From contig NC_089429.1 of the NCBI RefSeq assembly GCF_026210795.1, forward strand, positions 1,364,001 through 1,428,000: DNA of 64,000 nt, read 5' to 3'. Positions 26,390-61,149 of the stretch are shown in pieces; the stretch's first letter is position 1; each line of letters begins with the position of its first letter. This DNA comes from Rhizophagus irregularis (lineage: Eukaryota). Both the position numbers and the translations under genes were made by a program. Below the pieces are notes generated by a model. It was not told where the DNA came from and did no database searches. It worked only from the letters and a program-made list of their open reading frames with translations.

Positions 26390-27700
26390 CAACCTATTAT
26401 AATATAGACGTAAACATCTGTTAATAAAGCATCTATCTAAAAAAAAACTATACTAATAAAATTAATCTAAATACTAAAATTAGAAGCATAATTAGAAGAT
26501 CTAAACGTAACTAAAGTGTAATATTTCCACAAATCTTCTGTACCTATTTCATACCAGATACTTTTAGCTACTATATCGTTATTGATATAATACCCTGTCC
26601 ATCTTTATAAAGCATCATAAATAAAGAGTTTTCAATTTTTTCTCATCATGTCCCAAACGAGGTAACAAAGATTGATGTAATTTACTCACTTTTTTCATCT
26701 GTTTCGTTATGCCCTGCCTTAATTCTCATTCATTAAAACTTTTACATCGTTCACTCCACATGAATTTTCTAGCCATATCATGTATATCCTCTACAAAACT
26801 TGCTATAGCGTCTTTAAAAATTTTATCCTCTATCTCTAGAAACAACCTTTTGTTAACTATTCCTTTAATAGCTTCATGAAAAATTCAACCATTAAATACC
26901 ACTTTCGACTTTTCATTCAAAATGTGCAATAGACGTGCATGATAATTATAATAAATCCTAAAATCCTTCTCATTTAACTTAGCTTTTAAAGATTCAAAAG
27001 CTTCATTAATTATTTGAATAATAGATGTATCTGCCTGACTACATATCCAAATATGTGTCCATGTTTCAATTGTATAATTACAACGTATACATCTCCCACT
27101 TTGATATGATTCTGGATTACGTTTATTTAATAATGTAAAATTTCCAGAAAATTTTTAATATTATAAGCATTATCAGAATTATTCCAATCTGTATTTTCTT
27201 CATTAAAAGCTTTCATAATAATTCTGATTGAACGAACCCAGTCAATCTTTTCTATCGAATTATTGAATCTATAATATCGACACACGTCTAAAAATAAAAA
27301 TTCTGCTTTATAACTCCATTGATTATATAATTTATAAAACTCCCTTGGCGCCTCTTTAATTAATTCCTTTTCCCAATATAAATTATATTTCCAGTCTATC
27401 TCCTGATTCAACTTTATTATAATCAAATTTCTATCTTCTTTCATCATTAACGCAACTTTACTCAAACTATCAGCCAATTCATTTCCTAAAATACCCGAAT
27501 GACCTTTAACTTTATAAAAAACCAAATCCCATTCTAATTTTATCATCAACCATTTTAACCATCTCCATAATCCAATACTTTTAACGTTCCATATCCTTCT
27601 GGTCGACCATATTCTATTATCTACTATTAATTTGTACTCTAATCTCATTACTGCAATTTCTTTATCAATCATACACTGTATTACAGCTGTCTGAGAGTAT
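26390..27700 (-). mobile_element. 5'-truncated, decayed non-LTR retrotransposon (RNase H plus C-terminal Cys/His motif)
   Basis: KVKGHSGILGNELADSLSK (RNase H C-terminal motif) in ORF 27127-27738; after a frameshift CIRCNYTIETWTHIWIC at ~27045-27092. Boundaries approximate. Confidence 0.75.
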
Positions 27701-31247: not shown

Positions 31248-32789
31248 ATGTCATGTTCAAAAATATTTTCAGGAGATTTACCTGAATTAACATATGATGT
31301 TATAAAATATTTTCAGAAAGATTTTTCAACTTTATATTCATGTATTTTAGTAAACAGATTATGGTGTCGTTTAGCAATTCCATTATTATGGGAGGAACCA
31401 TTTTCGATTTGTACCGATAACCATATAATTATTAAAATTATTAAAATTTACTTGAATAATTTAAATGATGATTTTAAAATGAAATTATATGAATATAAAA
31501 TTATTAATAATTCATTAATACCTTCAAAGAATATGTTGCTGTTTGATTATCTCAAGTTTTTAAAATATTTGAATACACATAATTTTATTTTATTTGTTGA
31601 AACATGGTTAGGTAATGCTATTTATAATTTAAAACCCGAAAATATATTATATGATTCTGAAAAAAAATTTAAGAGATTAGTTCATATGTCATTCTTTAAA
31701 ATTTTTATTGAAAATGAAGTAAATTTAAATACTCTTGAAATTGAGATTTCAGGTAATAGTAAATATGATACATATCTTGATAATAATCTTGAGTTAATTT
31801 TACAAAATCAAAATTTTATTCAAAACGTTAAAAATTTGAAACTTCATATCTACAAATATGAAGAAAATACGGTAATTAATAATCATATATCGCAAATAAT
31901 TCATTCACATCAAAATCTTAAAAAAATTTTCTTATTTAACTTAAGTATTAATGATTTATCTTTATATCAATCATTATTATCATCAAAAGATCATAATTGT
32001 TCAAATACTTTAAATACTATCATTTTATATCAAATTAAATTAAAATTAATGAACAATCTTGATAAAATATTTGAACAATTAAATGTTTTAGAATCTGTTC
32101 ATATTATTTATTGTTCATTTTTGAATAGTAATTTTATTCAACAAATTATTAATTTAACTAAACCATTTAAATTAAAATCTTTAATTTTAAATGAGATACC
32201 ACAATTTGAGTCATTACAACAATTATTACTAAAATCTGGTGATTATTTAGAAAATTTCGGCGGGCGTGAAATTTATTATTTTAATCATGATATATCACAA
32301 TTAATAAACTATTGTAATAATATCAATTTTCTTTATTTTACTGAGTATGATGAAAATAAGAATTCTACTTATCAAAAAATCAATTCAATTGAAAATATTA
32401 AACAAAATCTCAATTATCTTTCAATCAAAATACGTTCACCAATTAGTAGTTCAATCATATTAAAAAATCTAGGACAAATTCTCCCTTCTAAATTAGATTA
32501 CATAAGTTTGAATTTAAAAATTGAAAAAAGGGATTTTAGAGTATTCTTAGAAAATTCTCAATATAGTTTTATTAATAAATTGGTAATACTACAAATGGGT
32601 GATGATGATATTTTACATTGCATAAAGGACTATTGTATTATGAGAGTCAAGTATTTAGCTATTAGGGATCTTAAGAAAGAATTGTTTGATTTTAAAGACG
32701 AAGTGAGGGAATTGGAGTTACATAATATTAAAGTTCAAAGACATATTGATTTAGATATTAGAATTTATGACTTTATGAAAGAATATTGA
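31248..32789 (+). CDS. Intronless F-box-like protein of the expanded Glomeromycotina family
   Basis: MSCSKIFSGDLPELTYDVIKYF...LYSCILVNRLWCRLAIPLLWEEPF; the ORF extends upstream to ATG 31182 but 31248 fits the family start. Confidence 0.85.
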   Translation: MSCSKIFSGDLPELTYDVIKYFQKDFSTLYSCILVNRLWCRLAIPLLWEEPFSICTDNHIIIKIIKIYLNNLNDDFKMKLYEYKIINNSLIPSKNMLLFDYLKFLKYLNTHNFILFVETWLGNAIYNLKPENILYDSEKKFKRLVHMSFFKIFIENEVNLNTLEIEISGNSKYDTYLDNNLELILQNQNFIQNVKNLKLHIYKYEENTVINNHISQIIHSHQNLKKIFLFNLSINDLSLYQSLLSSKDHNCSNTLNTIILYQIKLKLMNNLDKIFEQLNVLESVHIIYCSFLNSNFIQQIINLTKPFKLKSLILNEIPQFESLQQLLLKSGDYLENFGGREIYYFNHDISQLINYCNNINFLYFTEYDENKNSTYQKINSIENIKQNLNYLSIKIRSPISSSIILKNLGQILPSKLDYISLNLKIEKRDFRVFLENSQYSFINKLVILQMGDDDILHCIKDYCIMRVKYLAIRDLKKELFDFKDEVRELELHNIKVQRHIDLDIRIYDFMKEY

Positions 32790-35399: not shown

Positions 35400-38350
35400 A
35401 AATAAACTTATTTACGAAAAATTCATTATTAAAATCAAACTATTTTACCATATGCACTAAACCTGCAATGGATTCAAATGGTATTAAATCATAATGATTT
35501 ACAAATTTCATATGGGACATTCATACATTATGGGATATCGTTTAGAATAGTAATCATACCAATGTACTAAAGCAAGAGACAAATAAGGATGATTAGGAAG
35601 GAACAAAACTTCAATTAACATTAATACCTGTAAAATAAATAAAAATATTAAATAGTGTTTAGTTTTAATTAAAATAAATATATAAATACTTGCCTTGCCA
35701 TAACATAATCCACCTTCAGTTAAGTAATCTGTATTACCCATTGCAATTGCAACATCACTAAATCTTGCATAACCATGAAATTTACTTGTTGCATATATGA
35801 TTTCTCCATTTGACAGTGTTCCATTAGCATAAATCTTTAAATAAATTTCTTCATTTGCTGATGCATTAGATATATCATCTAAGTATATATCTAAACAAGC
35901 AATTAAATGTTCCATTCCTTCAATACACAATTCATTTATATTTTCTTCATGCTTAAGCTTTTCTTGAAGAGTATATATTTCACTTATTGGCAATTCCCAA
36001 AGAAGTGATTTCATAGAATTTAGTTTTAAACTTATAGTTTTTTCGTAATGGTATTTGTAATTATTTGTCGTCAAATCTAATAATATATTTAAGTTGTTAA
36101 AAAAATCTTTTACATTTATTTGGCTGAAAATTGCATTATAACATACTGTCTTAAACATTTGATTATGTGTATTTTTTTTATTAGACATTCTATATGGATT
36201 TTTAACCCAATTTTTGTGAAGCATTTCATACGTCTCAGTTGTCAGCCCATTTAATGCATCATATTGCCAAATGGTATAAATAGTATGATATCTCCACATG
36301 TGAAGCTTTGGTAACTGAAATCCACTAGGAGAGAATTGCGCAAATATATTTACAAAATCATTAGACCAATCTATTATTTCATGCTATATAAAAGCAAATT
36401 AGTAAAAAAATCATATGTAATATTATACTATTATTATGTAAGAAATAATTATACTTCAAAGATTTTTAAATCATCTTCATTAAATTTCTTTTTTTGTGAC
36501 ATAATATACATCTTAATAAATTTAATTTAACATATAATAAGGTTTTTACATAAAGAAATAGTATATAAATTACTATCTGTTTGGTTATTGATTTTATTGC
36601 CTGTTGTGTACAGCTCATCAAGAACAAATACAATAATCTTCATAACATCTCGCATTTCACCTCCTGTAAATTTTGTACCTTGTTGATAACCTTTTTTTAA
36701 TATTCTTAAATTATTGAATCGTGTAATAGTAGCCAGTCGATTGTCCATAGTGCTCTATATGAGCCAAGCCAGCTCATGAGCTTTTAAGCTGAGCCAAGCC
36801 AAGCTAAACCAAGCTGCGGCAGTTATAGCTTGGCTTGGTGCTGGCTTGGCTTGATTTATTGAAAATTAAAACTAAAGTTTCAAAACGTGTAATAACTTCG
36901 CCAATATTGCTCTAAATTTAATGAATTTACTACCATTCGATTCCTCTTGATGAGACGAATCTAATGGTAGTAAAATCGTTAAATTTGGAGCAATATTGGC
37001 GAAGTTATCACAGTTTGAAACTTTAGTTTTAATAAATTTTATATGATTTTGAAAATGAGCTAGCTTGTGAGCTTTTGGAACAAGCCAAGCTAAGCCAAGC
37101 TGAGCTAGCCCTTGGCTCGGCTCAAGCTGGCTCATGTAGAGCTTTAATTATCCATTTTACTGATTATTTGATTTCCATACTGATGCATGAGCATATCTCT
37201 TATGATATAATCAAGCATATATGGAAATAATCCAATTTCTTGTAAATGCATACGATCTAGTGCTGCTGCATCATATATGTTCATTATTCTAAAAAAATTG
37301 TAATTTTAAATTAAATCAAAAAAAAGAATCGTCAAATAAATTCAAATAAATTAATACCTAAAATTCCAGAAAAAATTATCATATTCGTGAATGGAACAAT
37401 TTTCTGCATTGTGAGAAGCAATAGCTTCTTGCATGTTTTCATGATTATGCAAATCTATCATATCCTGTTCAATATTCATATTATTTAATTGATCACCAGG
37501 CGTAAGACATTTATAGCAAGGACATCGTATATGATATGACTTGTAAGTACAACAAATATCCTGTACTTCTAGCATATCTGCAATTATAATAGACAAATAA
37601 ATGGTAAAGTGCTCAACTTTTCCATTTATTGCTAAGTATATACCATCCTCCTTAGGAAGTAGACCTAATAAATATTTCAAAGCACGATGCTTCAAATCCC
37701 ATTGCTTCAGCTTAAATTCCTTTGAATTTTACAATTTATTATCTCACGTAGTTAAATAAGGTAAAAATCTGATAAAAACTTTTGCATCAGGTAAGTTGCA
37801 GTGTAAATTTGGAATATTTCCAAGGGTTAAGAAAATAGGATACTCAGATTTTTGCCCAAGAGTGTCAAGAGTAGTTCCATCAATATAAATCATAACTGAT
37901 AAAATTTTGCTAAATGAATTATATCTTTCATGCCACCACTCTGTGGTATACTGTTCAGAATAAACACATACAAGTGATCTATTCTAGAATAAAATTATTA
38001 TTAATCTTTTGAAATATAATACACCAATATATACATTATAAAAATACTTACAAGACCAAATCAAAAAGAAAATCTTAGTCAAATCAGAATTCGAAACCAA
38101 ACTTTTGATTGCATCATAAATTGGCCTATAATGTAATTTATAAATTTCTTCTTCAAATATAATGAGTTCTTTTTCTTTAAATTGTAAACCTTTAACATCC
38201 ATATTGTCAATAATTGTACGCCCTTTTCTGGTAGATCCAGGAAGTTGATCAGTACAATGTTTTTTTAGTATATGTAATATAGAATCAGCAGTTGCGTCAG
38301 AAAGATGATATTGTGTTACAGCCATCATAAATTCTTTGTACATTTCACTA
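35400..38350 (-). pseudogene. Plavaka-like transposase, fragmented
   Basis: LHYRPIYDAIKSL; IYIDGTTLDTLGQKSEYPIFLTLGNIP; ADMLEVQDICC...CPCYKC; TTETYEMLHKNWVKNPYRMSNKKN. The family call is from motif recall, not a search. Confidence 0.75.
36748..37146. mobile_element. hAT-type MITE inserted in the transposase
   Basis: TIRs tagtgctcta / tagagcttta; 8-bp TSD attgtcca / attatcca; subterminal (agcca)n repeats; palindromic centre. Confidence 0.85.
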
Positions 38351-40547
38351 GGCCATAAATCTTATAATTAATTTTTATATTTATATTAACATAAATTTTC
38401 TTAAGTTATATATTATAAAAACTTTATATATTTTATTCTTTAGGAACTTTTTTTCTTATTTAAACACCTTTTTTTTCAATACAATACATATATAAAAAAT
38501 TTATATTGAGCTAACTTTTATAGTTTCAACCTTCAGATGCAACTTGTTGGTAAAAGGTAAATATTACTTTTAAATATATAAATATATGTAATTTTTTATG
38601 AAAAATCAGTTTACTTAATAATTTTCTTAATAAAATTTATGGTAAATCTAAATTTACAATTTTAGCAAAAATTAGCCAATATTAAACTAGGGTAATTTGG
38701 TATTGTTAGTAAGTTATAATATAATTATTGCATTATTCAGTAATTATTTATATATATTTTAAGTAATATAATAGGGTTTATATTAAAAAGTTGATTTGTA
38801 TTTTGTATATTTATCAAATAATAAATTTTATGGTTTATTTTGAGTTTATTAGTTTTATTAAAGAAATATTATATTTAATGATCAAAATGAATTAATCCTG
38901 TAACATGTTAAATGATAATAATATAAAGATAAATATAAATATAATAGTTTGTATTGATTTTAATAAAATATTAGATATGATGATAATGTTAAGTATACAT
39001 CAAGGTTGCATGGGATGATCTCCCTCCTGAATCTCCTGAATAATAAAAATTGATATGAAAATATAGAAATATAATATGGACGAAATTATATTTATTTTGT
39101 AAAAGATATTTTGCGATGTGATTTTAACATGATTTATATAAAGAAAAAAACTCCATTAATCCATTTATATTTTGAAACAATAAAATGATATATCTTTTTT
39201 TTATACTGTATATTCATACTGTATGCTTATAAAAAAATAAAATCTCCATATTTTTTAATATTCCACATTTTAAAGTACTTAATTAAATTCATATATTTAT
39301 TATTAAATTCAAATAATAGAATAGCATCTGTTTTTTAATACTAATATATTTCATTAATTTATAATGTTCATACATTGCATTTATTTATTAAGTTTCATTT
39401 ATTCACATTTATTGTTAACCTTTTGTATACATGCAATTTACTTTATATATACTGCCTATTATCAGAATAAGTATGTTAATTATGTAATCATTTATAAACT
39501 TAATAAATAAACGCGTTAAAAAAAGAATCAGAATAAGTAAAAATTGGCAAAAAATTGGATAGCCAATTTTTGGCTACATCTGTCCAATTTGTGACTTTTA
39601 CAGCCGATTTCATAGATCGTTACTAGTGTATTACCAATATAAAAATGTAGATTCCATAATCCATATACAATTTTTTTGTATGGTAAAAAATAAAAAAAAA
39701 TTTATATTGTAATATTAAATTTAATTTTAAATAATAATGCTTTATTAAGTAATATTAAATAAAAATTTAAATTTTAAAAATACACTAAAGAATGTAAATT
39801 TATTTGCAATTCAGTATAGTATGATCATAAAAAATATAAATTACTCCACTGCATTTTCATGAAAATTGGATTTTGACTGCTAAACAACTTTTAATTAATA
39901 AAAGAAGTCGATTTCCTTTGACCAAAATGTTCAAAATACTGTTAAGCCAGTTCTTGTATGCTTATAAAAATAAGCGTATGGGTGTATGGTAAGCAGAAGG
40001 ATAATTGAATAAAATAAGTGTTAAATAATATTAATGAACGAAAAGTGAAAATAACTATATGTAAATATTAATAAATATATCACTGTCGATCAATTTACGA
40101 AGGTTACACAATAAAATAAAATGTAAAATTCAGTCAAATGCGAATACGGTATTGCACACACGGGCATATACACTCAGACGCAATATTGACTCACAAAATA
40201 TAACAATTATGAAAAATAAACAATGAGATAATTTATTTAATAAATGCTTTATTAAAATATAACAGAATTATCTATCTTCAATACATAGAAAAATAATGCA
40301 TCTATTTATATGTAAAAACACTAAGCTAAAAATGTTTAAAATGTTTAATATATGCCATATATACCATATGTGCAATATGTGCAATATATGCCATATATTT
40401 AATATATTTGATATATTAAACATTTCGAACATTGATCCTCCCGTTATATGACGTTGATCATTCAACAATAATTAATCATCCCGGAAATTACCATTGATCA
40501 ACGATTATATCACGTGACTTCGTTGCATTGTTTTCATCGTAACAATA

Positions 40548-41655
40548 CGTCTGAAGTGACAAAACAGAAAAAATAAAATTCATGAATGAGTACCGTTGTG
40601 AAAAACGTGAATACCCCTTCAAGTATTAACTGTACCTTCATGAAAATTAATATCCAAGCAGATTATGACCCACTGAAAAACTTTCAATTAATATAAGAAG
40701 TCAATTTACTTTGACTAAAATGCTCAAAATACGCTCTGAAGTGACAAAACGGAAAAAATAAAATTCATGAATAAGTATCATTGTGAAAAACGTGAATAAC
40801 CCTTCAAGTATTAACTGTACCTTCATGAAAACTAATATTCAAACAGATTATAACTCGCTGAAAAACTTTCAATTAATATAAGAAGTTGATTTACTTTGAC
40901 TAAAGTGCCTAAAATACGCTCTGAAGTGACAAAACAGAAAAAATAAAATTCGTGAATGAGTACCGTTGTGAAAAACGTGAATAACCCTTCAAGTATTGAC
41001 TGTACCTTCATGAAAATTAATATCCAGGCAGATTATGACCCGCTGAACAACATTCAATTAATATAAGAAGTCGATTTACTTTGACTAAAGTGCTCAAAAT
41101 ACGCTCTGAAGTGACAAAACGGAAAAAATAAAATTCGTGAATGAGTACCATTGTGAAAAACGTGAATAACTCTTCAAGTATTAACTGTACCTTCGTGAAA
41201 ATTAATATCCAAGTAGAATATCACCTGCTGAACAACATTCAATTAATATAAGAAGTCGATTTACTTTGACTAAAGTGCTCAAAATGCGCTCTGAAGTGAC
41301 AAACCGGAAAAAATAAAATTCGTGAATGAGTACCGTTGTGAAAAACGTGAATAACTCTTCAAGTATTAACTGTACCTTCATGAAAACCAATATTCGAACA
41401 GATTATTACTCGCTGAACAACTTTCAATTAATATAAGAAGTTGATTTACTTTGACTAAAGTGCCGAAAATACGCTCCAAAGTGATAAAACAGAAAAAATA
41501 AAATTCCATTGTGAAAAACGTGAATAACCCTTCAAGTATTAACTGTACCTTCATGAAAATTAATATCCAAGCAGATTTTGACCCGCCAAAAAACTTTCAA
41601 TTAATATAAGAAGTCAATTTACTTTGACTAAACTGCCCAAAATACGCTCTGAAGG
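40548..41655. repeat. 185-bp tandem repeat, about 6 copies
   Basis: ctgaagtgac at 40551, 40736, 40921, 41106, 41291; related reverse-orientation units at ~60330-60830 with the same 185 period. Confidence 0.92.
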
Positions 41656-42672
41656 TAAAAAAAATTTGTAACTTAGTACTATCATGTAAAAATGTAAATA
41701 ACTCCAAAAATATTCACTGTGCTTTCATGTAGATTAATATCTTAACAGCTTCAAACTTGCTGAACTACTTTTAATTAAAGAGCAAGATTTACTTTGGCCA
41801 AAATGCTCAAACCATAATTTGAAATATGTGTAAACAAACTATAATATTTGTTTATATTTAAATTCTGAGTTATTTAATTTAAATATGTTTGTGTTTATAT
41901 TTAAGGAAAAAAAATAAAATTTTACTTCTATTTTATTAGGTTTTTGTAAATGAAAAGACAAAAAAATAATCAGCTGAAAAAATAAAAAAATTCTTTGTTA
42001 ATAACCGTAATACATGATCATATGTTGCAATATTAAAATCGGAAATCCTATATTTAAATTGGTAATACGTATTACATATATGACCGATAGGCCAAATTAT
42101 ATTTCCTGCTATTACAATTGTAAAATAATATTAAAATTATGAATAAATTAAAAGTTTTTCTAATTTGAAAAATGCAAATCTTTCTGAATTACTCAAATTT
42201 TCAAATCTGTTTATTATAGTATAATCAATAATTAATTTTCACTGCAAAATCTCCTAGGAATGGATAAATAAATACATATAAAATTTACTACCCAGTAAGG
42301 TTTTTTTGGATGGTTCTAACCTCTACTTATTATTTATTTTATTTATTTTATTTTTTTTATAGAGAGAAATTGTCATAATATATGTATTATTTTAAAATTA
42401 ACATTTTAAAAATTAAATTGAAAAACTATAATTTATTAATTAACAATAAAATGTTTTTTGTTAAAATTATTTAAAAATTTTTTAAATTATAGTGAAAATG
42501 CTACAACAGTAAATAATATTATAATAACGAAATTGATCAGCAAACAAATGAAAACATGCAAATATTGAATGATGTCTCAATTTAACAGGTATTTTCAATA
42601 GCACAGGAAGAGTTTTTGCGAAAAGTTGGCATTAGAAGTTTTTTTCATTGTCATTGTCATTGTCATTGACAT

Positions 42673-43436: not shown

Positions 43437-44186
43437 ACATTATCACTGACATTGACATTGTCATTGTCATTTACATAAAGTTATATAAGATTAATTTGAG
43501 AGTTTTTTACCAAAAAGGAAATTTTTTTATAAAAAGAGAAATGATTTTCAATTTCGAGGCAATTCAGCAGGTGTTTTAATAACAAATTGAGAAATGATTT
43601 CCATAGAAAATCTCGTGACAAAATTTATAATATATTTAAAAATAAATGATCAACAAATGATCAACAAAATTGTTACTAGTTTTATAAAAAACGCCTAATA
43701 ATATCTTTTTATTGTTTTAACTTACAAAATTTATATAAATATTTGCTAATTTTTTGTATAAATACAATTTTAATTGCAAATTACATGTTTTAATAAAATA
43801 ATATTTTAAATATTTACAATATTTAACAAATTTTATAATTTGACTAATTTTTAAAAGTTGTTTATAGTAAAAATACTTCAATAATTATTTAATTTTAATA
43901 AAATTTAAAGTATAATCTAAGGTTGCTTGGCGAAACTTGGAAGTTTAGACAAGTGTTGAAATCAAAACTAGTTTAAACATTTTGTTAAAAAGTAAAAAAA
44001 TTGCGAAACTGCGAAACTGCGAAAAGTTTAGACATATTTTTATATAGTAATTTAATGAAGTTTCGCCATTTACTATAGTAAATCATATGAATTAGTATAT
44101 TATGTATATCTTTTCCTATAAAAGTTAGAATACATTTATCTGAATTTACCGAATTGCAGAAAAACATTTGATCTGATTTTCGTGTA

Positions 44187-47100
44187 CAGTCAACTCCCTC
44201 TATAGTCACTCCCGTTATAGTCACATTCTACTATATAGTCACACCAGTTGAATGTTCAAAACACTTTATTATTAAAATCTATCCTATATAGTCACAATCT
44301 ATCTATAGTCACTATCACACCTATCCTCAAAAATCTTATATTAAAAAGAACTGTTTATAATCACAGTTATATAAAGAATATATTAAATAACTTGGCATCT
44401 AATAATCGTACAAAGTTGTATCATAGCTTGTTAGAATCGTCTCACTGAGACGAATCGAATAGTGGTAGTTTTATCCTTTCCTTTGCTAGTGTTTACGGCC
44501 AGACCACCCATTGCCTCTTATGAGACTAATCTCGGATCTGTGTTCTATCATCTTCACTGGGCAACCATTATACCGAGTACTTAATTCCTCAGGTAACAGC
44601 ACCACTATAGAAGACATCCCCCATCGGGCCATTTTAGGCTGATCTGAAGCTAGGTACACGCCGCCTACTCATCCTATATCCATTGCATGATACTGATACT
44701 CAATTTATTTTACGACCTTTAGAGAGCATCTACTTTCATGGAGGACTTTTGACAGGTAACATCAACCATCTAATACTCTTCCATACCACCATTTTAAGTA
44801 CTAAGTCTCACTCAAAGGCCACTACAGCCCGCGATTACCTAGCACCGATAGTACAGTTGTTTACCCCAATTGGTATACTTTGTAGTGACCACTCGGACAG
44901 GAAGTAGCAGGCTTCTGTTCAGGATCATCCCTTATGGTGGGTATCAACCACCAGGGATCACCAACCAGGACCCAAGAAGTGGGGAATCGAACCCCATAAC
45001 CATGCTATCTGTTCTGTGCACAAACACCTTTGGCTTATTCCTAAGACCTAACAGAAGGTCAAACTACCACTAAGACATTGCACCCTCAGCTTTACCATCT
45101 AGGATGATCATCTAGCCATTACTGATCCCAAGTGGTATCGTGGAGTGACCACCTGAACAGGAAGTCCCCCCAAGGTATAGTAGTGACCTCAAGGACAGGA
45201 CTGCGCACATACCAATGGCCTCATAGGGAACGTTAGAAGGACACCATGACCCTTAATTGAAATGTGCGGCCTAACCGTACACACTAATTCACCATGATGC
45301 AGTCCAACTACACTAATCCCTGTACCTTCACGCTATTGGTTGTAGCGTCTGCAGTAAAATTCTTTTTATTTCCGTGGTCATGGGAATCGAACCTGCGACC
45401 TCACCATACTCAGGCTTAATGAGGGTCTCAGTGACTAACCACCGAGATAGGGTGACCAACCCTAGTTTTATCCTTTTCCTTTGCTAATGTTTACGGCCAG
45501 ACCACCCATTGCCTCTTATGGAGACTAATCTCGGGTCTGTGTCCTATCATAGTTTTATCCTTTTCCTTTGCTAATGTTTACGGCCAGACCACCCATTGCC
45601 TCTTATGAGACTAATCTCGGGTCTGTGTCCTATCATCTTCAATGGGCAACCATTATACCGAGTACTTAATTCCTCAGGTAACAGCACCACTATAGAAGAC
45701 ATCCCCCATCGGGCCATTATAGGCTGATCTGAAGCTAGGTACACGCCGCCTACTCATCCTATACCCATTGCATGATACTGATACTCAATTTATTTAACGA
45801 CCTTTAGAGAGCATCTACTTTCATGGAGGACTTTTGACAGGTAACATCAACCATCTAGTACCCTTCCATACCACCATTTTAGGTACTAAGTCTCACTCAA
45901 AGGCCACTACAGCCCGCGATTACCTAGCACCGATAGTACAGTTGTTTACCCAAGTGGTATACTTTGTAGTGACCACTCGGACAGGAAGTAGCAGGCTTCT
46001 GTCCAGGATCACCCCTATGGTGGGTATCAACCACCAGGGATCACCAACCAGGACCCAAGAAGTGGGGAATCGAACCCCATAACCATGCTACCTGTTCTGT
46101 GCACGAACACCTTGGTTGGTCTAAGACCTAATAGAAGGTCAAACTACCACTAAGACATTGCACCCTCAGCTTTACCATCTAGGACAACCATCTAGCCATT
46201 ACTGACCCCAAGTGAGGTATCGTGGAGCGGACCACCTGGGAACAGGAAGCCACCCCCTCAAGCATAGTGAGTAGCGACCGCGAAGGACAGGGACTACGCA
46301 TACCAATGGCCTCATAGGGAACGTTAGAAGGACACCATGACCCTTAGTTGAAATGTGCGGCCTAACCGTACACACTAATTCACCATGATGCAGTCCAACT
46401 ACACTAATCCCTGTACCTTCACGCTATTGGTTGTAGCGTCCGCAGTAAAATTCTTTTTATTTCCGTGGTCATGGGAATCGAACCTGCGACCTCACCATAC
46501 TCAGGCTTAATGAGGGTCTCAGTGACTAACCACCGAGATAGGGTGACCAACCCTAGTGTTTTATCCTTTTCCTTTGCTAATGTTTACGGCCAGACCACCC
46601 ATTGCCTCTTATGAGACTAATCTCGGGTCTGTGTCCTATCATCTTCAATGGGCAACCATTATACCGAGTACTTAATTCCGCAGGTAACAGCACCACTATA
46701 GAAGACATCCCCCATCGGGCCATTATAGACTGATCTGAAGCTAGGTACACGCCGCCTACTCATCCTTAATCCATTGCATGATACTGGTACTCAATTTATT
46801 TTACGACCTTTAGAGAGCACCTACTTTCATGGAGGACTTTCGACAGGTAACATCAACCATCTAGTACCCTTCCATACCACCATTTTAGGTACGAGGTCTC
46901 ACTCAAAGGCCACTACAGCCTGCGATTACCTAGCACTGATAGTACAGTTGTTTACCCCAAGTGGTATACTTATGTAGTGACCACTCGGACAGGAAGTAGC
47001 AGGCTTCTGTCCAGGATCACCCCTTATGGTGGGTATCAACCACCAGGGATCACCAACCAGGACCCTCAAGAAGTGGGGAATCGAACCCCATAACCATGCT

Positions 47101-49231
47101 ACCTGTTCTGTGCACGAACACCTTGGTTGGTCTAAGACCTAACAGAAGGTCAAACTACCACTAAGACATTGCACCCTCAGCTTTACCATCTAGGACAACC
47201 ATCTAGCCATTACTGACCCCAAGTGGTATCGTGGAGTGACCACCTGAACAGGAAGTCCCCCCCAGGTATAGTAGTGACCTCAAGGACAGGACTGCGCACA
47301 TACCAATGGCCTCGCCAGGGAACGTTAGAAGGACACCATGACCCTTGTTGAAATGTGCGGCCTAACCGTACACACTAATTCACCATGATGCAGTCCAACT
47401 ACACTAATCCCCGTACCTTCACGCTATTGGTTGTAGCGTCCGCAGTAAAATTCTTTTTTATTTCCGTGGTCATGGGAATCGAACCTGCGACCTCACCATA
47501 CTCAGGCTTAATGAGGGTCTCAGTGACTAACCACCGAGATAGGGTGACCAACCCTGTTTTATCCTTTTCCTTTGCTAATGTTTACGGCCAGACCACCCAT
47601 TGCCTCTTATGAGACTAATCTCGGGTCTGTGTCCTATCATCTTCAATGGGCAACCATTATACCGAGTACTTAATTCCTCAGATAACAGCACCACTATAGA
47701 AGACATCCCCCATCGGGCCATTATAGGCTGATCTGAAGCTAGGTACACGCCGCCTACTCATCCTATACCCATTGCATGATACTGATACTCAATTTATTTA
47801 ACGACCTTTAGAGAGCATCTACTTTCATGGAGGACTTTCGACAGGTAACATCAACCATCTAGTGCCCTTCCATACCACCATTTTAGGTACTAAGTCTCAC
47901 TCCAAAGGCCACTACAGCCCGCGATTACCTAGCACCGATAGTACAGTTGTTTACCCCAAGTGGTATACTTTGTAGCGACCACTCGGACAGGAAGTAGCAG
48001 GCTTCTGTCCAGAATCACCCCTTATGGTGGGTATCAACCACCAGGGATCACCAACCAGGATCCAAGAAGTGGGGAATCGAACCCCATAACCATGCTACCT
48101 GTTCTGTGCACGAACACCTTGGTTGGTCTAAGACCTAACAGAAGGTCAAACTACCACTAAGACATTGCACCCTCAGCTTTACCATCTAGGACGACCATCT
48201 AGCCATTACTGACCCCAAGTGGTATCGTGGAGTGACCACCTGAACAGGAAGTCCCCCCCAAGGTATAGTAGTGACCTCAAGGACAGGACTGCGCACATAC
48301 CAATGGCCTCATAGGGAACGTTAGAAGGACACCATGACCCTTAGTTGAAATGTGCGGCCTAACCGTACACACTAATTCACCATGATGCAGTCCAACTACA
48401 CTAATCCCTGTACCTTCACGCTATTGGTTGTAGCGTCCGCAGTAAAATTCTTTTTATTTCCGTGGTCATGGGAATCGAACCTGCGACCTCACCATACTCA
48501 GGCTTAATGAGGGTCTCAGTAACTAACCACCGAGATAGGGTGACCAACCCTTGTTTTATCCTTTTCCGATCACTGGCTGACGAGTTATTCAACAAAATGT
48601 TAAACATCGGCATTATAATATTTCTTGATTTACGTTTACTGCGCCATTTAACATTTTGCTAGATTTCTCAGTACCTAGTGATTGTAAAAAGACGATTTAT
48701 AGCTCGTTGGAATCGCCTCATCGAGACGAATCGAATGGTGGTAAGCTCATCTCTCTGTGATCAATATTGACGGAGTTATTACTTAAAAACCATTTAAATT
48801 TTTTAATTTCGGAAATTGATCTAGTGATTGGATTTCGATGTATTTTATACCATTAGATTCGTCGCATCAAGACGAATCAAATGGTAGTAAGATCGTCTCT
48901 TTAGGATCAATATTAGCAGAGTTATTACACAAAAACCATTAATATTTTTTTAATTTCGGAAATTAATCTAGTGATTGGATTTCGACGTATTTTATACCAT
49001 TAGAACCGTCTCATCAAGACGAATCGAATGGCAGTAAGATCATCTCTCTACGATTAATATTGGCGAAGTTACGATACAATAAAGTTTTAAGTATAATTCT
49101 GGCTAAAATTATGTTAATTTTTGGCCGGAATTATGATATACAAATATAAGAAATTTTTTATATAGTCACATCTCTTTATAATCACCAAATATGGACTGTC
49201 CCAAATGTGTGACTATAAAGAGAGTTGACTG
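44187..49231. mobile_element. Non-autonomous Tc1/mariner(pogo)-type element nested in the hAT
   Basis: 23-bp TIRs cagtcaactccctctatagtcac / gtgactataaagagagttgactg; TA TSD. Confidence 0.88.
44482..48550 (-). mobile_element. Tandem stack of four ~1-kb tRNA-headed SINE-like elements plus one 71-bp truncated copy
   Basis: GC-richer near-identical units separated by ttttatccttttcc; the minus-strand 5' head contains the GGTTCGATTCC B-box. Confidence 0.75.
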
Positions 49232-49374: not shown

Positions 49375-50914
49375 TTATTGATTTTCATTTACATATTTAT
49401 TTAATAAGTCATTAACATTGTAATTCAATATACCCCTACCATTTGTATCATCAACAATCTCATCATCTATTAAAACAATATTTTCATCATTATTATTCTT
49501 TTCATTATCAATAAAATCATCATCTAAATCTTTAGGTATATTACCAATACCATTCAAAATTAAATCATTTGATAAATCAATTTCATTTTCAATCCAAATA
49601 TTTTCAATTAATACAATAAAAAAGCTGATCTGATCTGATCCATTTTGGATCAGATCCGCGGATACGAATCAGATTGGATTTTTTTTGGAACACTACTTGA
49701 AGTGGTCCATCTAGTTATGCAATATGATTTAAGACCACCGCCTTTAATGCCAGATTCTTCAATCAATTTTCAAAATTTACCACCTATTTTATCAACAATT
49801 AATTAATGTAATTAATATTTAAATGTTGAATCTTTTGCTAATTCGCAAGATTAAAGTATATCTCTTACCAGCCATATGTGAATTGCGAAAAAAGGTGGTT
49901 AATATATTTACTCTACGAAGTAATCTATCTGCAAAATTGTAGCTAACTATATCACATGCAATTAAATTAATGCGGTGTGATATACACCGAATGCTCTCAA
50001 TTTTTGGATACTTTTCATTAATAATCTTTCTTGCTTTTCTAATATTGGCTGCATTATCTGACACGATTGCAAAAATCCGTTCAAATCCCACTTTTTTGAT
50101 AACTTCTTCAATTTGTACAGCCAAATACTCAGCTGTATGCGAATCTAATGATAGATCTGAAAGTTGGTACAGATACTCCTTTCGTGATGGCATGAAAAGT
50201 ATAAAGTTCCAGATAAATTGGTAACGTCCAAAAGTCCATCCATCCAGAGCTTTACAATAAAAGAAATAAGAAAATTTAAAATTAATAATATAATATAATA
50301 GAAAAGGTAAAAGAATTATAATTTACTTACTGAGAGTCAAATTATGCTGATTCATAATATCCTCATTCATCTTTTTATAAACATTACATAACTCAGTTTC
50401 AAGTAAACGGCCAGATAAATATTCTCATGTTGGAGGATCGTAACCAGCGTTAAGTTCTTTCAAAAAATCAATAAAAAAAGGGTGCTCCACAATTCTATAC
50501 GCTATCCCACAACAAATGAAAAATTTCACAAAAGCACAATTGATTCGATTTATCCTTGCTTCTGGAAGGTTAGTTGAATCATGAAAAGCCATTATAGTGG
50601 TTCAACTGACCACAGACTTATCAACCTTTCTTTTTTTGTTAGAAGTATTTCCCGATTTCTAACCTTCTCCATATATTCATGTAAAACAAGTTGCAGCACA
50701 TTTGAGCAATGGTTCGCAAGATGTTCCTCTAAAATAGGTGTTTTGCCACGTTTTCATGTTTTTGAACAATATTTACACTCAGCTTCAAATTTTCCAGGAG
50801 AAACTGCGATTTTTTTGATGAAATGCTGCTAAATTGGTCCTAAGGGTCATCCACCTGCATGTTTTTCCTTTCCAGATCTTTGAGTTTCTAGATTAATAGG
50901 TGTTATTGAATCCA
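49375..50914 (-). pseudogene. hAT transposase pseudogene (BED finger plus DUF659-like region)
   Basis: AECKYC near 50770; LDGW near 50245; IVSDNAANIRKARKII...IRCISHRINLIA in ORF 49819-50193; stops, frameshifts and an internal deletion. Confidence 0.85.
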
Positions 50915-52281: not shown

Positions 52282-52632
52282 TAAAGTTCCCTGCCGAAAT
52301 TAGGGAGTTTCGGCATGTCAAAATTGTCAAAACTATTTTGACATGTCAAAATTGTCGAAACCTAAAAATATTACATTTCACGTAATAACTCGGCGTCCAA
52401 TGATCATAGAAAGATGCACCATAGCTCGTTGGAATCGTCTCATAACGACAAGTTGAATGGTGGCTAAATCGTCTTTCTACGATCATTGGACGCCGAGTTA
52501 TTACGTGAAACGTAATATTTTTAGGTTTCGACAATTTTGACATGTCGAAACTATTTCGGCATTTCGGCATTTCTACAGGTTTTAGTTTCGACATTTCGAC
52601 AATAGCCTGTAGAGTTTTGGCAGGCAACTTTA
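52282..52632. mobile_element. hAT-type palindromic MITE
   Basis: TIRs taaagttccctgcc / ggcaggcaacttta; perfect 8-bp TSD gttataat. Confidence 0.9.
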
Positions 52633-55600
52633 GTTATAATGCTATCATGAAAATTTTTTCAGGGTAGTAATTCTAAAAATGATTAACAATCAGATAATAA
52701 GATTGTTGTTTTATTATAATGTTATCATAAAATTTTTTTTTCTCAACAATTGGATGATAAAATTAAATAAATGTTATATCAAGTAATTTTTTATTTTGAA
52801 ACAAAACAATAAACAACAACTAAATGGTAAAATTTCATTATCATTGTCTTATTATTATGATATTCAGTTATCATAATTTTCCAGAACTAAAAATGATCAA
52901 CAATCGGATAGTAGAATTGTTTTATTACAATATAATCATGAAAAATTTTTTTCCAGAGCCGTAATTCCAAAAATGATGATAGTAAATATTAAATAAATGC
53001 TTTATCAAGTAATAAACAATCTTTCTGTATTGTTATTTAAAGTTAATCACATATTCTGATATATATATTTTTTTATTTTTAAACCAAAAAATAAACAACA
53101 ATCAAGATAATTAACCTTAAAATGATTAACAAGTGAAATAACTAAGCCAAAAATGATTAACAAGCAAAATAAACCGAAAATGATCATCCTTTACCAAATG
53201 AGAAAAAAATTATGTTAATAGCTAGTTAAGAGTAATTTCTCATTTTTTTTTATAGATATGTTAAATATAATCAAAAATTTTGCAAATAAAGTGAAAGTTA
53301 TGGTTTGGCTAGAAAAGCCCGGCGAGCGAAGCGAGCCAAATGAAATTGCATCATCATAATAAATCACATGAATATTTAATACACAATCACATGATCTACC
53401 AGTAATTTTTCCACCAGTTAAAATTTAGAAATTCTCTTTAAATCTTAAAAACTATTTATCATAATAATTATGATACTGTATGGTAGTATAAACCAACTTA
53501 ATTAAAAAAAAAGTCAGAATTATTACAGTTCTAATTATACTATGACTATAGCTCCCTGCCATGTTTAATGTTAACTTGTTAATATGTAAAATACTAATTG
53601 ATATTTTGAAATATTTTACATAATAATATATACTAAAATTTTACAGGCTATTTTATATTCTTTAAAAGTAATTATATATTAAATTATATTAAAATTGAAT
53701 AGTTATTGAAATACTTTTACTATTAACAACTTTTAAAAATTAGTCAAATTATAAAATTTGTTAAATATTGTAATAAATATTTAAAATATTATTTTATTAA
53801 AACATGTAATTTGCAATTAAAATTGTATTTATACAAAAAAATTAGCAAATATTTATATAAATTTGTAAGTTTAATATTGGCTAATTTTTGCTAAAATTGT
53901 AAATTTAAATTTACCATTAATTTTATTAAGAAAATTACTTTTATTTATTAAGTAAACTGATTTCTCATAAAAATTTACATATATTTATATATTTAAAAGT
54001 AATATTTACCTTTTACCAATAAGTTGCATCTGGAGGTTGAAACTATAAAAGTTGGCTCAATATAAATTTTTTATAAAAGTATTATATTTAAAAAAAAAAG
54101 CATTTAAATAAGTAAATTAGTTCCTAAAGAACAAAAATATATAAAGTTTTTATAATATATAACTTAAGAAAATTTATGTTAATATAAATACAAAAAATTA
54201 CTATTTATTAGTAATTATAAGAGAAATGAAATGACCACTGACTGATAGGTAAGTTTTGAAAATAATTTTTTAAACCTTTTAAAAAAATGTTTTTAATGTT
54301 TTTTTTTAATATTCAATTATAAGGAATTGGTTATGTTGAATTCCATAGCTAGGTAAGTTTTGAAAAAAAAATTTTCAAAACTTTAAAAAAACGTTTTTAA
54401 CATTTTTTTTCTAATACACTATTATAGGGAATCGATTACAATGAATCCCATAGGTGAGTTTCAAAAAAATTTTTTGAAACTCCTTTTTTTTATTATTTAA
54501 TTATAGGGAATCAGTTATAATAAATCCCATAAGTTCCCTATAAAAATAAGTATCACAGGTCAAAATCGAGGCTATCGGTTGCATATCGGTAGAATATGTA
54601 TATGATATGTATATGATATGCAACAATTACACACATATCGGATACCTGATATCTGTAATATTTATGCAGAAGTTCAGTGATATATATTATAGATATCATG
54701 CACATATTACACATATATCGGGTAGTATAATATCGGGCACATATCTTATACATGTCATATAAATATCATATAGATATTGGTCAGTATAATATCAGATACA
54801 TGTTATATAAATATCGGATAAATATAGGATACATATCGTACATTTATCTGACAATACGATAGATAATTTTTTCATATAATATTATAATTTAATCTGGGCA
54901 AAATTATAATTTCAGATTAATTTTTAATTTTAATTCGGGCTAAAGTAAAATTTTATTACACAAATTTTATTATTTTCAATTAAACTAAAAGTTTTATTGT
55001 TTTTTAATTAATAATAAAAAAAATTACAAAAAAATATATTATTCTATATAGCTATATAAATAATTAGATATCTGTTATCTACAAATAGTGCTTATTTTTA
55101 TCTGTTTAATATTTAAAAGAAAGAAATAGTATTTTAGTAATAAAGATATTAGTATGAATAATGTATTCGTAAAAGAAAAAGAATAGTATTAAAAAAATGT
55201 TAGTAAAAAATGGTTAGTAATAGAAAATGTTATTAGTATGTTTAGTAGTAAAATATATTAGTAAAAACAAACGTTAGTACACTGGTCAAAATTGATGTTA
55301 TCGGGCACATATCATCTACCCGATATGTGCCTGATATGTATGAGATATATGTGCGATATTTAACAATACTACACATATCAGGTACCCAATATGTGTAGTA
55401 CAAATGTAGAAATTCGGACACATATATTATACATATCAGATACATATCGGGTATATATCAGGTAGTAAAATATCAGTTACATATAGTATACATATCAGAT
55501 ACCCGATAGATTCTAATAAATATCGGACAGATATTACATACTTATCGGGCACATGATATGTGTAGTACAATTGCAGAAATTCGGTGACATATAGCATAAA

Positions 55601-56606: not shown

Positions 56607-57438
56607 ATACACATTTCAGATAGTAGTATTTATGCTAATTTAATAGATTTATAATTTAAATTCAATTGTTAAAAGTTTTATTTATATTTTTTAAAAATAT
56701 TACAAAAAAAAATTATTATTTTATATAAATTCAATTAAAATTATGTAGATACTAATTTATAATTAATGTGTTCACTTGTTTGTTGCTTAGTATTTGTATT
56801 TTCATTTAATAATTTGATATTTAAATAATAATAAAAAATGTTAAAGAGAGTGAGAGATTAGTGTTAGAAAATATTAGTATAAATATTAGTAAATAGAAGT
56901 GTAGTAGAAAATGTTAGTAAAAACATTAGAAGTATTAATAAAAAATATTTAGTAGTAAAATATAAAAAGAAATGTTAGTAGAAGTGTTAAAAAAAGTTTA
57001 GTACGTAGCATAGTAATAGAAACATTAGTAGGAGAAAAACATATTAGTAAGAACATTAAGAAAAGAGATATAACAGAAAATGTTAGAAAAAAAATGGCAA
57101 TAAAAAATATACCTTTGTATTTATTTTGGACAAAACAATAAAATAAAAATTTTTAAAAGAGAAAAGATTTTAAGAAAAAAAAAAAAAAAAAAAAAAAAAA
57201 ACGCGAAAGACAAATAAATAAAAAAATCGTATTACCACGTGATTAACAATAATTATTAATTTTTATTGGCTATTTAGGTAATTATTGATTTTAAATTGGT
57301 TTGTGTAATGCATTTATACTAAAAGTACATTCAATTACACTCAATTGCACTGCAGTTAAACTCTTTATCACTTTAAATACAAAATCATACATTTCTACGC
57401 TGTATATACCAATTAGTCATCTATCGGTCACCTATCAG

Positions 57439-57975
57439 CACAGGTCAAAAAGTGAAAAATCAGGCACCAATCGGTCACCAATCAGGTAGCTGATTGGTGA
57501 CTGATTGGTGACTGGTTGGTACCTGATTGGCATTTTCGCCAAATACCGTCACCAATCAGGCAGTTTGCTAACTTTTGATCCAGTGATCAGAAAAAGATGA
57601 AATATAGCTCATTGGAATCGTCTCAACAAGACGAATCTAATGGTAGTAAAATCGCATCTCTAGGATTGATAGTTAATAAAAAATTAAATAAAATATAAAT
57701 GATACATTTTCATTTTTATATTTTACTTAATTTCTCATCAAGTATTAATCCTAGAAATGCGATTTTACTACCATTAGATTCGTCTTGTTGAGACGATTCC
57801 AATGAGCTATATTTCATCTTTTTCTGATCACTGGATCAAAAGTTAGCAAACTGCCTGATTGGTGACGGTATTTGGCGAAAATGCCAATCAGGCACCAATC
57901 GGTCACCAATCAGGTACCTGATTGGTGACCGATTGGTGACTGATTGATGCCTGATTTTTCACTTTTCGACCTGTG
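57439..57975. mobile_element. Near-perfect palindromic CMC-like MITE
   Basis: Ends cacaggtc / gacctgtg; 3-bp TSD cag; arms almost fully complementary. Confidence 0.9.
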
Positions 57976-59064
57976 CAGTCACCTATCATGCATATACCCG
58001 ATACCCGATTCATCCAAAATTCAAAAATAAAAGAAATATAATTTATGTTTCTTTAATATATTAAAAAATTCCTAAGCTTACAATTTCAAGTCTAGGTTCA
58101 TCCAAAAGTCCGGCAACCTAAAAAAAGAAGAAAGAATCGTTTAGTAACATTTCTTAAAGAATAAAATAAAAAAACTACCCACCCTTTTTTTACCTAAATT
58201 CCAAAGTTCAGGTTGTATTATTCGTCCGGCAACCTAAAAAAAAGAAAAAGAGAAAAGAGAAGCATTAAAAACGTTTCTCTTAAAAAAAACAAAAAATATT
58301 ACTCCGCTTATCTGGGTCATCTAAAAGTTTTTTGAAGGTAAATACCTTTGAATTTTCATTTCACCATCCCGGAGACCTAAAAATTAAACCAAAATGTTAA
58401 TTACGTTTTGTTGAAAAACAAAAAAAAATAAATTTTTTCAAAGATAAATAAATACCTTTGAATTTTCATTTTACCATCCAGGAATCTGAATACCTATAAA
58501 AAAATAAAATCAAATATTAGTTACGTTTCATTGAAAAAAAAATAACAAAATTAGAAGAATTTTGAAGTATACTTTGAAATTCTATCCAAGGATCTAAGGA
58601 TTCTGCTAACCTACGCCGATGCCTATAAAATAAATGAAAATAAGGTTGGTTAGTTAAATAAAAAAAAATTTGAAATAAAAAGTTTAGAAGCATTTATTCG
58701 CTTCAAAACTTACCAATCCAAAGCCTAAAGAGTAACTGAACCGATACCTAAAAAATAAAATAAGAAAATAAATTAAATTAACTTAAAAAAAAATAATAAA
58801 TTTCAAAGCTTTTGCTTCGAAACTCACATATACAATGCCCATCACAAGGATATCCGATATCTACATACAAATAAAAAAAATTAATTAAATTAAAAAAAAA
58901 TTATTTCAAATAAATTTCAAAGCAAAATGCTTTGAACTTTGAAGCTTACCTATCCAATGCCTATCCAAGGGTATCCGATGGAATTAATAACCTATAAAAT
59001 AAAATAAAATAAAAATTATTAATTAATTAAAAAAAAATTATTTCAAAGTTTTCAAATTTACCTA

Positions 59065-59586
59065 CATCAGGAAATTTGTTTAGGCGTAATTTAGTGTAAT
59101 ATTTTGAAGGTGGTGTAAAATTTCGAAATATTACACTAAAAACGTAATATTACAAAAGTTTACGCTCTTAAATTTGAATAATTATAGTAATTTAAGAATA
59201 TCTCGCTATCTACTGATCCAATCAAGACGATCTATAGCTCATTGGAATCAGCTCATCAAGACGGATCGAATGGTAGTAAAATCGCATTTCTACAGTTGAT
59301 AGAACGCTCTATAGTATGCAGTAAAGTTTTAAAGTAATAGAAAATCATCTATCGAACGTAAAGATACGATTTTACTACCATTCGATTCGTCTTGATGAGC
59401 TGATTCCAATGAGCTATAGATCGTCTTGATTGGATCAGTAGATAGCGAGATATTCTTAAATTACTATAATTATTCAAATTTAAGAGCGTAAACTTTTGTA
59501 ATATTACGTTTTTAGTGTAATATTTCGAAATTTTACACCACCTTCGAAATATTACACTAAATTACGCCTAAACAAATTTCCTGATG
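59065..59586. mobile_element. Near-perfect palindromic MITE with TA TSD
   Basis: catcaggaaatttgtttaggcg... / ...cgcctaaacaaatttcctgatg; inserted into a minus-strand short exon. Confidence 0.9.
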
Positions 59587-59829
59587 TATATATCCAAAGC
59601 CCAAGAGCTAAAAGCCAAAACCTAACAAATAAAGAAAAAAAAATCAAAAAAAAAATCATTTTTTTGTTTTAATAAAAAGTTTCGAAGCTCTTCGAAACTC
59701 ACATATCCAAAGCTGCTCATGTCAAGAGCTAAAAGCCGATCGTGAAACCTACAAAGAAAAAAATTAAAAAATAATTATTTTTTTTTTTAACAAAAGAATT
59801 TTTGAAGCTCTTCGGAACTCACTTATATC

Positions 59830-61149
59830 AGGACCCCAGAAAATGCTTATATATGTAAGGTACCAAGGTGCTTAGCCAACATAGAAAAATTTTATGATGT
59901 AAGAATTTTATAATGCTTAATTTTAAGAAAATTTTATACTATGTAAGATAATTAAATTGCATATTTTTGGTATTATTTTAAAATACTAAGAGTTTCTAGT
60001 TGCTTATTTTTCATATTTATAGAACTTTTTAAATTATTATATATTGAATTTATAATTAATTTTTATTTATTTTCACTAACGGTAAGTGTTAATTTTGTAC
60101 TACATTTCACGATTTTATATAAATACATAAACAAAAATTTTTTTTGATGGAATTTCAGTTTTTTTTTTCAATGTTTTATTAATTATCTTTCAATAGTATC
60201 TTTTTAATTTTTATTAAACTCAGTGTATTATTTTTAATATAAAATTACTATATTATACATGTTTATTTTGTTAAATAAAATTACTGTAAATATGTTTTAC
60301 TTTAAAATATAATTTCACTACTTACCACTTTGGTTATATCAAATTATCTTTTATGCTTAAGTAAGGTTATTCAGCAAGTTAAATCTACTTGTATTTTAAT
60401 TTTCATAAGGCTAAGTATGATATTTATATAGAAAAGCATATTTTTTTTAACGGTAATAACTTTTAAATTTTTCACTTTTCGTTTATAACTTCAGAGCGTA
60501 ATTACACCACTTCAGTCAAATGAAATCGACTTTCTAAATTAATTGAATGTTGTTCAGCAAGGTCGAAACTACTTATATATTAATTTTTATAAGTGTGGGT
60601 ATAATACTTATGGAGAAAAGTGCATTTTTCATAACGGTACTAACTTCCGAATTTTTCATTTCTCCGTTTACAACTTCAGAGCGTAATTACACCCCTTTGG
60701 TCAAATGAAATCGACTTTCTAAATTAATTGATAATTGTTCAGCAAGGTCGAAACTACCTATATATTAATTTTTATGGGTGTAAGTATAATACTTATGGAG
60801 AAATTTACATTTTTTGTAATAGTATTAATTTCGAATTTTTCTCTTACTGTTTATTAACTTTATTAATTGAATATTATTAATCTACTTGTATATTATGTTT
60901 AGTTTTATAGCTTCACAACATATTTAAAATTGGATTTAATAAAATATATTAATTAATAAATATATTTTATAAATTATATGTGTTATAATAAAAATTTAAT
61001 TAGGTTAGAAGATTGATTTGCTTATTTTTATATAATTTTTAAGGTTAGATATCAACAATGCTTAGCGATCATAGTAAAAACCTGTGCTTAGAGCTACTAA
61101 TAAAAAATATTTTTGGGACCTTACCTATATAAGTATTTTCCGGGGTCCT
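59830..61149. mobile_element. TIR element with 8-bp TSD containing 185-bp repeats
   Basis: TIRs aggaccccagaaaatgcttata / tataagtattttccggggtcct; TSD cttatatc; a similar terminus lies at 33999. Confidence 0.85.

Follow-up and report, generated by a model that had tools for sequence, protein, structure and literature searches.

The window analysed here, 64,000 nt of Rhizophagus irregularis DNA (contig NC_089429.1, positions 1,364,001 to 1,428,000), contains a stack of four full non-coding units of ~980 nt and one 71-nt stub, arranged head to tail on the minus strand within a DNA transposon. The element is a real, site-specific, stacked retroposon. The best explanation, to which we give a probability of roughly 80%, is a high-copy, non-coding retroposon of ~980 nt whose transcript would come from RNA polymerase III (pol III) and be mobilised in trans by a sequence-specific long interspersed element (LINE) through target-primed reverse transcription (TPRT), each insertion regenerating the site. 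The parts of the stack are the following:

44468 to 44481, plus strand: outer target duplication, one T short
44482 to 45463, minus strand: U1, full unit, the most diverged (23 private substitutions)
45464 to 45479, plus strand: A and the 15-nt duplication, a 16-nt target site duplication (TSD)
45480 to 45550, minus strand: U1b, 5'-truncated copy with the last 71 nt only (minus-strand 3' end)
45551 to 45566, plus strand: A and the 15-nt duplication
45567 to 46554, minus strand: U2, full unit, rich in small insertions at ~46210-46300
46555 to 46572, plus strand: AGT and the 15-nt duplication
46573 to 47555, minus strand: U3, full unit, with family-wide minority alleles including a compensated base pair
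47556 to 47570, plus strand: the 15-nt duplication with no extra base
47571 to 48551, minus strand: U4, full unit
48552 to 48567, plus strand: T and the 15-nt duplication, followed by host GATCACTGG

The exact 15-mer GTTTTATCCTTTTCC borders the units (starts at 45465, 45552, 46558, 47556 and 48553), and a sixth copy with one T fewer lies at 44468-44481. The original prediction had described four full units and a 71-bp unit keeping only the minus-strand 3' end, bounded by this sequence with a first copy one T short, and no long open reading frame (ORF). The array was confirmed as it had been described there, and the longest stop-free stretch of a unit in six frames is 72 codons, i.e., there is no coding capacity. 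Between any two full units, 23-48 of ~978 aligned bases are substituted (95-98% identity), the GC content of the units is 48% (25% in the window), and self-comparison of a unit reveals no terminal direct repeat. The 3' junction is identical in all five units, each of which ends in a fixed AAA with no poly(A) or simple-repeat tail. The bases between the first base of the unit and the 15-mer (plus strand) are A in U1 and U1b, AGT in U2, none in U3 and T in U4; the 5' junctions of the four full units all differ, and four junction forms occur among the five units. As read from the sequence, the constant 3' and variable 5' junctions together with the TSD fit sequence-specific TPRT with a duplication of ~16 nt.

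Public contigs extend this evidence to the whole family. Part of the unit is contained in 16 of 20 listed runs (12 studies), and the contigs of four runs were aligned to U4 and its flanks. In three runs 14,976, 8,528 and 8,246 contigs were placed, with contig depth not usable as copy number. The many contigs carry many alleles and junctions, and the family is therefore large, dispersed and of high copy number. A joint is detectable only if both of its sides fall within the aligned stretch. Among the 15 of 35 joints listed, seven lead from an internal point to the duplication, seven are internal deletions and one is a strand change. At least 13 distinct 5'-truncation points join the duplication (15 of 35 joints plus 12 of 67 table rows). 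All eight truncated joints with letters given have A or TA in between, which are the bases preceding the 15-mer in the target, and therefore the usual duplication is 16 nt. Three truncation points and one full-length head join a duplication that continues into the tail of another unit, and such joints probably represent further stacks at other places. In three runs (22, 18 and 15 contigs) the loose ends before 48553 read GAATCGAATGGTGGTA, the empty site, whereas those before 47556 read either the head of another unit (26 contigs, agreement 0.6, run X1) or the target (run X6); among the rows listed, no loose end occurs at the unit's own 3' end (47571). Many truncation points join the same duplicated sequence and the empty target is present, which supports site-specific insertion. 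Genome-wide, on-target copies are expected to have 3' ends followed by GGAAAAGGATAAAAC. The 5' truncation plus TSD that the earlier reading took as the mark of TPRT occurs family-wide, with at least 13 truncation points at one duplication and a 3' end fixed in all five units. Random insertion sites or simple tandem amplification had been named as outcomes against it; what was found is that numerous truncated copies share the target, that the empty site exists and that stack junctions recur.

The stack lies within a host element and a target motif with the following positions:

44187 to 49231, no strand assigned: non-autonomous Tc1/mariner-type miniature inverted-repeat transposable element (MITE), ~960 bp without the stack, with terminal inverted repeats (TIRs) and TA on both sides
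44432 to 44467, plus strand: quasi-palindromic motif, core GTCTC-NNN-GAGAC, with the target 15-mer as its right arm
48714, 48860, 49007, 36932-36968, ~52430, 57619, 57770, 59249 and 59377: related motif copies

The host TIRs are 23 bp long (44187-44209 and 49209-49231), identical at 21 of 23 positions, and begin with CAGTC; from this TIR and TA anatomy we take the host to be a non-autonomous element of the Tc1/mariner type. Its flanks rejoin as one coherent MITE once the stack is removed. The motif matches ten times in the window (0.00 expected); three further copies (48714, 48860 and 49007) form 147-bp repeats within the same MITE, and among the motif copies of the window the 15-mer is present only in the inserted one. 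The proposal of a site-specific SINE-like element (SINE, short interspersed element) in a motif carried by DNA transposons is supported by the TA-flanked TIR host and by the occurrence of the motif in other palindromic elements. The same motif, ~60-90 bp long, sits at or near the centre of unrelated palindromic non-coding elements at 36760-37145, 52283-52632, 57430-57985 and 59066-59590, and also at 48675-49082. It is possible that the motif common to these elements is a shared binding or recombination site; a full-text literature search for its core returned only primer-like matches.

U3 carries alleles that segregate family-wide (47785G, 47818C, 47800T and 48409C), which indicates that it derives from another source copy. 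Differences among units are mostly private, with only five two-against-two sites. These alleles, the different 5' junctions, the truncated unit with its own duplication and the private differences argue for separate insertions rather than local duplication. A head-to-tail array of 95-98% identity with minority alleles shared at four sites could also stem from a single targeted insertion, or two, multiplied in place when the duplications underwent unequal crossing over or gene conversion with each other. Recombination reproduces junctions unchanged. Here, by contrast, the 5' junctions of the four full units all differ, the 5'-truncated unit has a duplication of its own, the differences are mostly private apart from the five two-against-two sites, and truncated copies occur at the same target family-wide. 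As a sole cause, local amplification is largely refuted and we regard it as very improbable. An assembly artefact, i.e., a collapsed or mis-joined repeat, could be suspected from the ~90-bp segment of U2 rich in small insertions and from the fact that no contig spans a whole unit; it is exceedingly improbable in view of the 2-5% unit differences with family-wide alleles, the head-TSD-tail junctions in independent contigs and the flanks that restore a single coherent MITE. The U2 segment itself (46210-46300) has many 1-4-nt insertions relative to the other units, and contig depth dips at the U4 equivalent (48225-48266); it is either a variant subfamily or a local consensus error.

The extra base of U4 equals the first base of U3, and a T is lost from the outer duplication beside U1, with no other copy lacking that T. 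On these two grounds the junctions suggest the order U1, U1b, U2, U3, U4, with U1 likely the first insertion.

The promoter-like features of U4 are two:

48462 to 48551, minus strand: tRNA-like head, with a B-box at 48471-48481 (same in every full unit)
48070 to 48086, minus strand: second perfect T-arm/B-box hairpin, with a B-box at 48073-48083 (in U1, 44983-44993)

The sequence GGTTCGATTCC occurs eight times in the window (0.02 expected), two per full unit and all on the minus strand. Perfect matches to the B-box consensus lie at nt 71 and nt 469 of the unit, and the latter is the mid-unit box foreseen from the sequence of U1. In 3000 dinucleotide shuffles of one unit, one such box appeared in three and two in none. 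TTT occurs four times on the minus strand of the unit compared with 15.7 in shuffles (0 of 5000 as low); the strand has one T4 and no T5. The 4.07-kb array thus presents a single T4 per unit on its minus strand, and the first T5 past U1 is 135 nt into the MITE. Because of the two perfect B-boxes and the strand-specific TTT depletion, pol III transcription of the unit from its head is likely. Six RNA runs (six studies) contain 0.42-0.52 of the unit's words, which is no evidence of expression. Alternatively, the unit might not be a SINE but a non-autonomous companion of a site-specific LINE, either internally deleted or of independent derivation, that is transcribed from flanking promoters and whose B-boxes are incidental. 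A length of 980 nt is long for a SINE, the head is not recognised as a tRNA, and the GC-rich structured body could be a LINE untranslated region. We find this improbable, given two perfect B-boxes, one of them 70 nt from the 5' end, and a TTT depletion that is strand-specific over the entire unit.

Under the retroposon explanation, pol III would start at the head, driven by the B-box. Since its T-runs do not exceed four and it lacks poly(A), the unit would be read through into the target; the RNA, with neither terminator nor poly(A), would end in flanking DNA and carry the target right behind its 3' end. The LINE endonuclease, most plausibly of the apurinic/apyrimidinic endonuclease (APE) type of L1/Tx1 by TSD length and precedent, would nick the 15-mer at its GATC side. 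At the nick, the 3' OH would pair with the stretch of read-through target carried by the RNA, with reverse transcription beginning at a fixed base; such a read-through target would explain an invariant 3' junction without poly(A). Second-strand cleavage ~16 nt away would duplicate the target and leave an intact site beside GATCACTGG for the next copy, which would produce stacking in the order U1, U1b, U2, U3, U4.

Beyond the original prediction, a closed-rod fold of the RNA body is predicted:

47575 to 48375, minus strand: predicted closed rod of the RNA body, in which nt 177-198 pair with nt 956-977 around nested helices

For the U4 minus strand the folding energy is -352.7 kcal/mol (z -3.3, 0 of 20 shuffles), compared with z -1.8 for the plus strand, and the body alone (nt 171-980) at -304.9 kcal/mol (z -4.6, 0 of 148 shuffles). 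The predicted pairing probability of nt 177-198 with nt 956-977 is 0.87-0.99, and the 3' tip would thus lie just behind the head. The same long-range helices are predicted in U1, U3 and U4. At the pair nt 734-767, U3 has G-C (47785G and 47818C) in place of A-U, one compensated pair, and the frequencies of the two alleles match in three runs (20-25% and 17-24%). The four common transversions are all at unpaired positions. No Rfam family matches the unit, and a search for hammerhead, HDV-like (hepatitis delta virus-like) or other ribozymes found none at gathering score and none convincing to E 10. The folded body probably acts in recognition by the LINE protein or in stabilising the RNA. Each unit also has three related hairpin modules (nt 263-296, 298-342 and 556-600 on the minus strand; 47952-48289 in U4), each with TCCTGT followed by a 9-bp stem ending in TTGGGG. 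As a tentative extension, with the odds against it, the element may be a pol III retroposon that is partly self-aiming. Its terminator-less RNA would end in the target and anneal to the primer left by the nick. An 800-nt closed rod, which belongs to no known RNA family, would at the same time offer the 3' end to a LINE specific for the palindromic motif of many unrelated MITEs, and these MITEs would be a renewable safe harbour in this mycorrhizal fungus.

A number of observations weigh against the retroposon explanation or parts of it. The tRNA-like head proposed originally has the named stems, but not a cloverleaf: none is supported by folding energy (z -1.4), ARAGORN finds no tRNA in the head, and its Rfam match is to tRNA-Sec at 15.5 bits (E 1.4, cut-off 47), similar to the second B-box module (tRNA-Sec, 16.5 bits, cut-off 47). 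No A-box lies within two mismatches at the expected place, and the depletion of T4 runs is by itself marginal (P = 0.055). Off-target copies are under-seen, since a joint needs both sides in the aligned stretch and the loose ends come from the listed rows, with 650 more rows outside the listing. One contig (run X2) joins the head at 48552 to 48701, on opposite strands, in the mirror arm of the motif; this joint is about in register, but the sequence differs from the 15-mer, and position within the palindrome may thus matter for insertion besides the 15-mer. As to the fold, the minimum-energy structure of U2 differs and is without the long-range helices, and 9 of 12 informative sites are compatible with the fold compared with 6.7 expected (P = 0.15, or 0.047 counting the compensated pair), in a test that excluded six U4-private sites and always-compatible classes. 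Differences from U4 break predicted pairs at 7 of 32 sites in U1 and 8 of 23 in U3; pair-breaking private changes are as expected after insertion. Beyond U1, the counts of private substitutions (U1 23, U2 1 outside the odd segment, U3 13, U4 6) are out of step with the proposed order. A LINE with the unit's tail was found neither in the window nor in collections of metagenome, viral and prokaryote sequences, where this fungus is scarcely represented.

A final point of this kind is that at 48003, 48148, 48243 and 48299 all four units carry the minority or half allele of the reads. The units of the stack thus appear related to each other rather than random draws from the family, either as one subfamily or through nearby sources, local copying, conversion or a strain difference. 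Part of the stack may have moved as a block, if a read-through dimeric or multimeric RNA was reverse transcribed in one event; U1b and U1, for instance, may stem from a single event that was cut short 71 nt into the second unit. The array has no terminator inside, with its one T4 per unit over 4.07 kb of minus strand, the four units share minority alleles, and stack junctions are common in contigs. However, U4's extra base is the same as U3's first base, which fits a duplication by U4 of the site that U3 left, U1b matches U2-U4 and not U1 at three sites, and U3 is of another haplotype. Block movement is rather unlikely, and it modifies rather than replaces the explanation by trans-mobilised insertions.

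Several LINE families have been reported in R. irregularis, including L1-Tx1, R1, R2-Hero and RTE (PMC11075540). A 16-nt duplication in a DNA transposon matches precedent, and by analogy a partner of Tx1 type would fit. The unit's tail and target patterns have no match in metagenome contigs, viral contigs or prokaryote genomes. A LINE-like remnant lies at ~26300-27800 (minus strand). It comprises a degenerate 3' part and a short A tail, and its RNase H match in Pfam (E 9e-4) falls short of the cut-off; as a partner it was rejected, its tail alignment score being 29 compared with 26-30 in shuffles. Rfam does not support a suspected resemblance between the antisense tail and 5S rRNA.

The surroundings are repeat-rich. 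A 205-bp inverted repeat pair, 93% identical (43716-43916 and 53671-53874), encloses ~10 kb in which lie a broken hAT-like DUF659 gene (~49800-50900) and the MITE with its stack; this interval is a nested transposon pile. A 512-aa protein encoded at 31251-32786 has 99% identity to a protein of R. irregularis, and those of its relatives for which an organism is given (at least 120) all come from Rhizophagus. The window further contains Sel1, kinase, F-box-like, Plavaka and DUF659 sequences, with broken Plavaka-like transposase pieces at 35508-38361 (minus strand). Minisatellite-like arrays with periods of 60, ~91 and 185 bp occupy 16456-17920, 18981-21970, 40544-41811 and 60366-60853.

SINEs that home to DNA transposons, which in the literature searched come only from crocodilians, would be extended by this element to an early-diverging fungus. 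It is also a pointer to a sequence-specific LINE of R. irregularis that has yet to be described. The enzyme of such a LINE, with a 16-nt duplication placed in dispensable MITEs, would be a candidate for site-directed insertion. R. irregularis is a fungus with few genetic tools. Stacks preserve the order of insertion and could be used as markers of strains and nuclei. With its long folded body and its lack of a terminator, the element allows a direct test of whether the precision of insertion is set by read-through target RNA.

The literature within reach, which excludes Repbase, subscription journals and the GitHub library, describes no target-specific SINE in fungi and no GAGACGAATC motif. 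The element resembles SINE2 in its B-box head, non-coding nature, TSD, 5' truncation and high copy number; it differs in having no poly(A) or simple-repeat tail and in its fixed target, and is about twice the usual SINE2 length. A poly(A) or simple-repeat 3' end is common, though not universal, in SINEs. In trypanosomes, non-autonomous RIME and autonomous ingi retroposons are stacked at one RHS site with a TSD between them; they differ from the R. irregularis element in their Pol II promoter and in a target within a protein-coding gene family. A retrozyme was rejected, as no ribozyme family matched the unit at gathering score or convincingly to E 10. TRIMs (miniature retrotransposons with terminal repeats, here those with a small-RNA promoter such as Helenus and Cassandra) were also rejected; their definition, as given in PMC10886601, needs two long terminal repeats (LTRs), a primer-binding site, a polypurine tract and a 4-5-bp TSD, whereas the unit has no LTRs, a 15-17-nt TSD and 5' truncation. 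The curated R. irregularis repeat library has SINE-labelled families (PMC11075540). The main text of that paper does not contain the term "site-specific" and its supplement does not contain the unit's tail sequence, the library itself being on GitHub; the consensus of the element may already be in it.

Closer parallels come from site-specific elements. Co-transcription of R2 and R1 with their target is mentioned in the discussion of PMC4494074; an RNA ending in the target would strengthen precise integration, a property we infer by analogy for the R. irregularis element, and R2 and R1 differ in their rDNA targets and in being autonomous. Tx1L in Tx1D of Xenopus (PMC4494074, PMC1950540, PMC6719617) is likewise a sequence-specific non-LTR insertion into a DNA transposon; as portrayed there it is autonomous and encodes an endonuclease, whereas the R. 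irregularis element has no ORF. The closest precedent is the crocodilian SINEU-3 in Mariner-N4_AMi, which according to the account of Kojima 2015 (PMC4494074) has a 16-nt TSD and tandems around the TSD and is ascribed to Tx1-Mar. In that account the tandems sandwiching the TSD are read as sequential insertions, and on-target truncated copies prove their independence (PMC4494074). Membership of SINEU was rejected because the unit has no U1/U2 head derived from small nuclear RNA (snRNA); Rfam gives no snRNA match for it to E 10. SINEU-3, as far as it is characterised there, and the R. irregularis element are both non-autonomous retroposons that occupy one fixed position in a Mariner-type element, itself non-autonomous, and stack with TSDs. 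Compared with SINEU-3, which alone has a named partner, the R. irregularis element has a fungal host, a B-box head in place of U1/U2, a length of ~980 rather than ~170 nt, a folded body, a target motif common to several palindromic element types and a stack five units deep.

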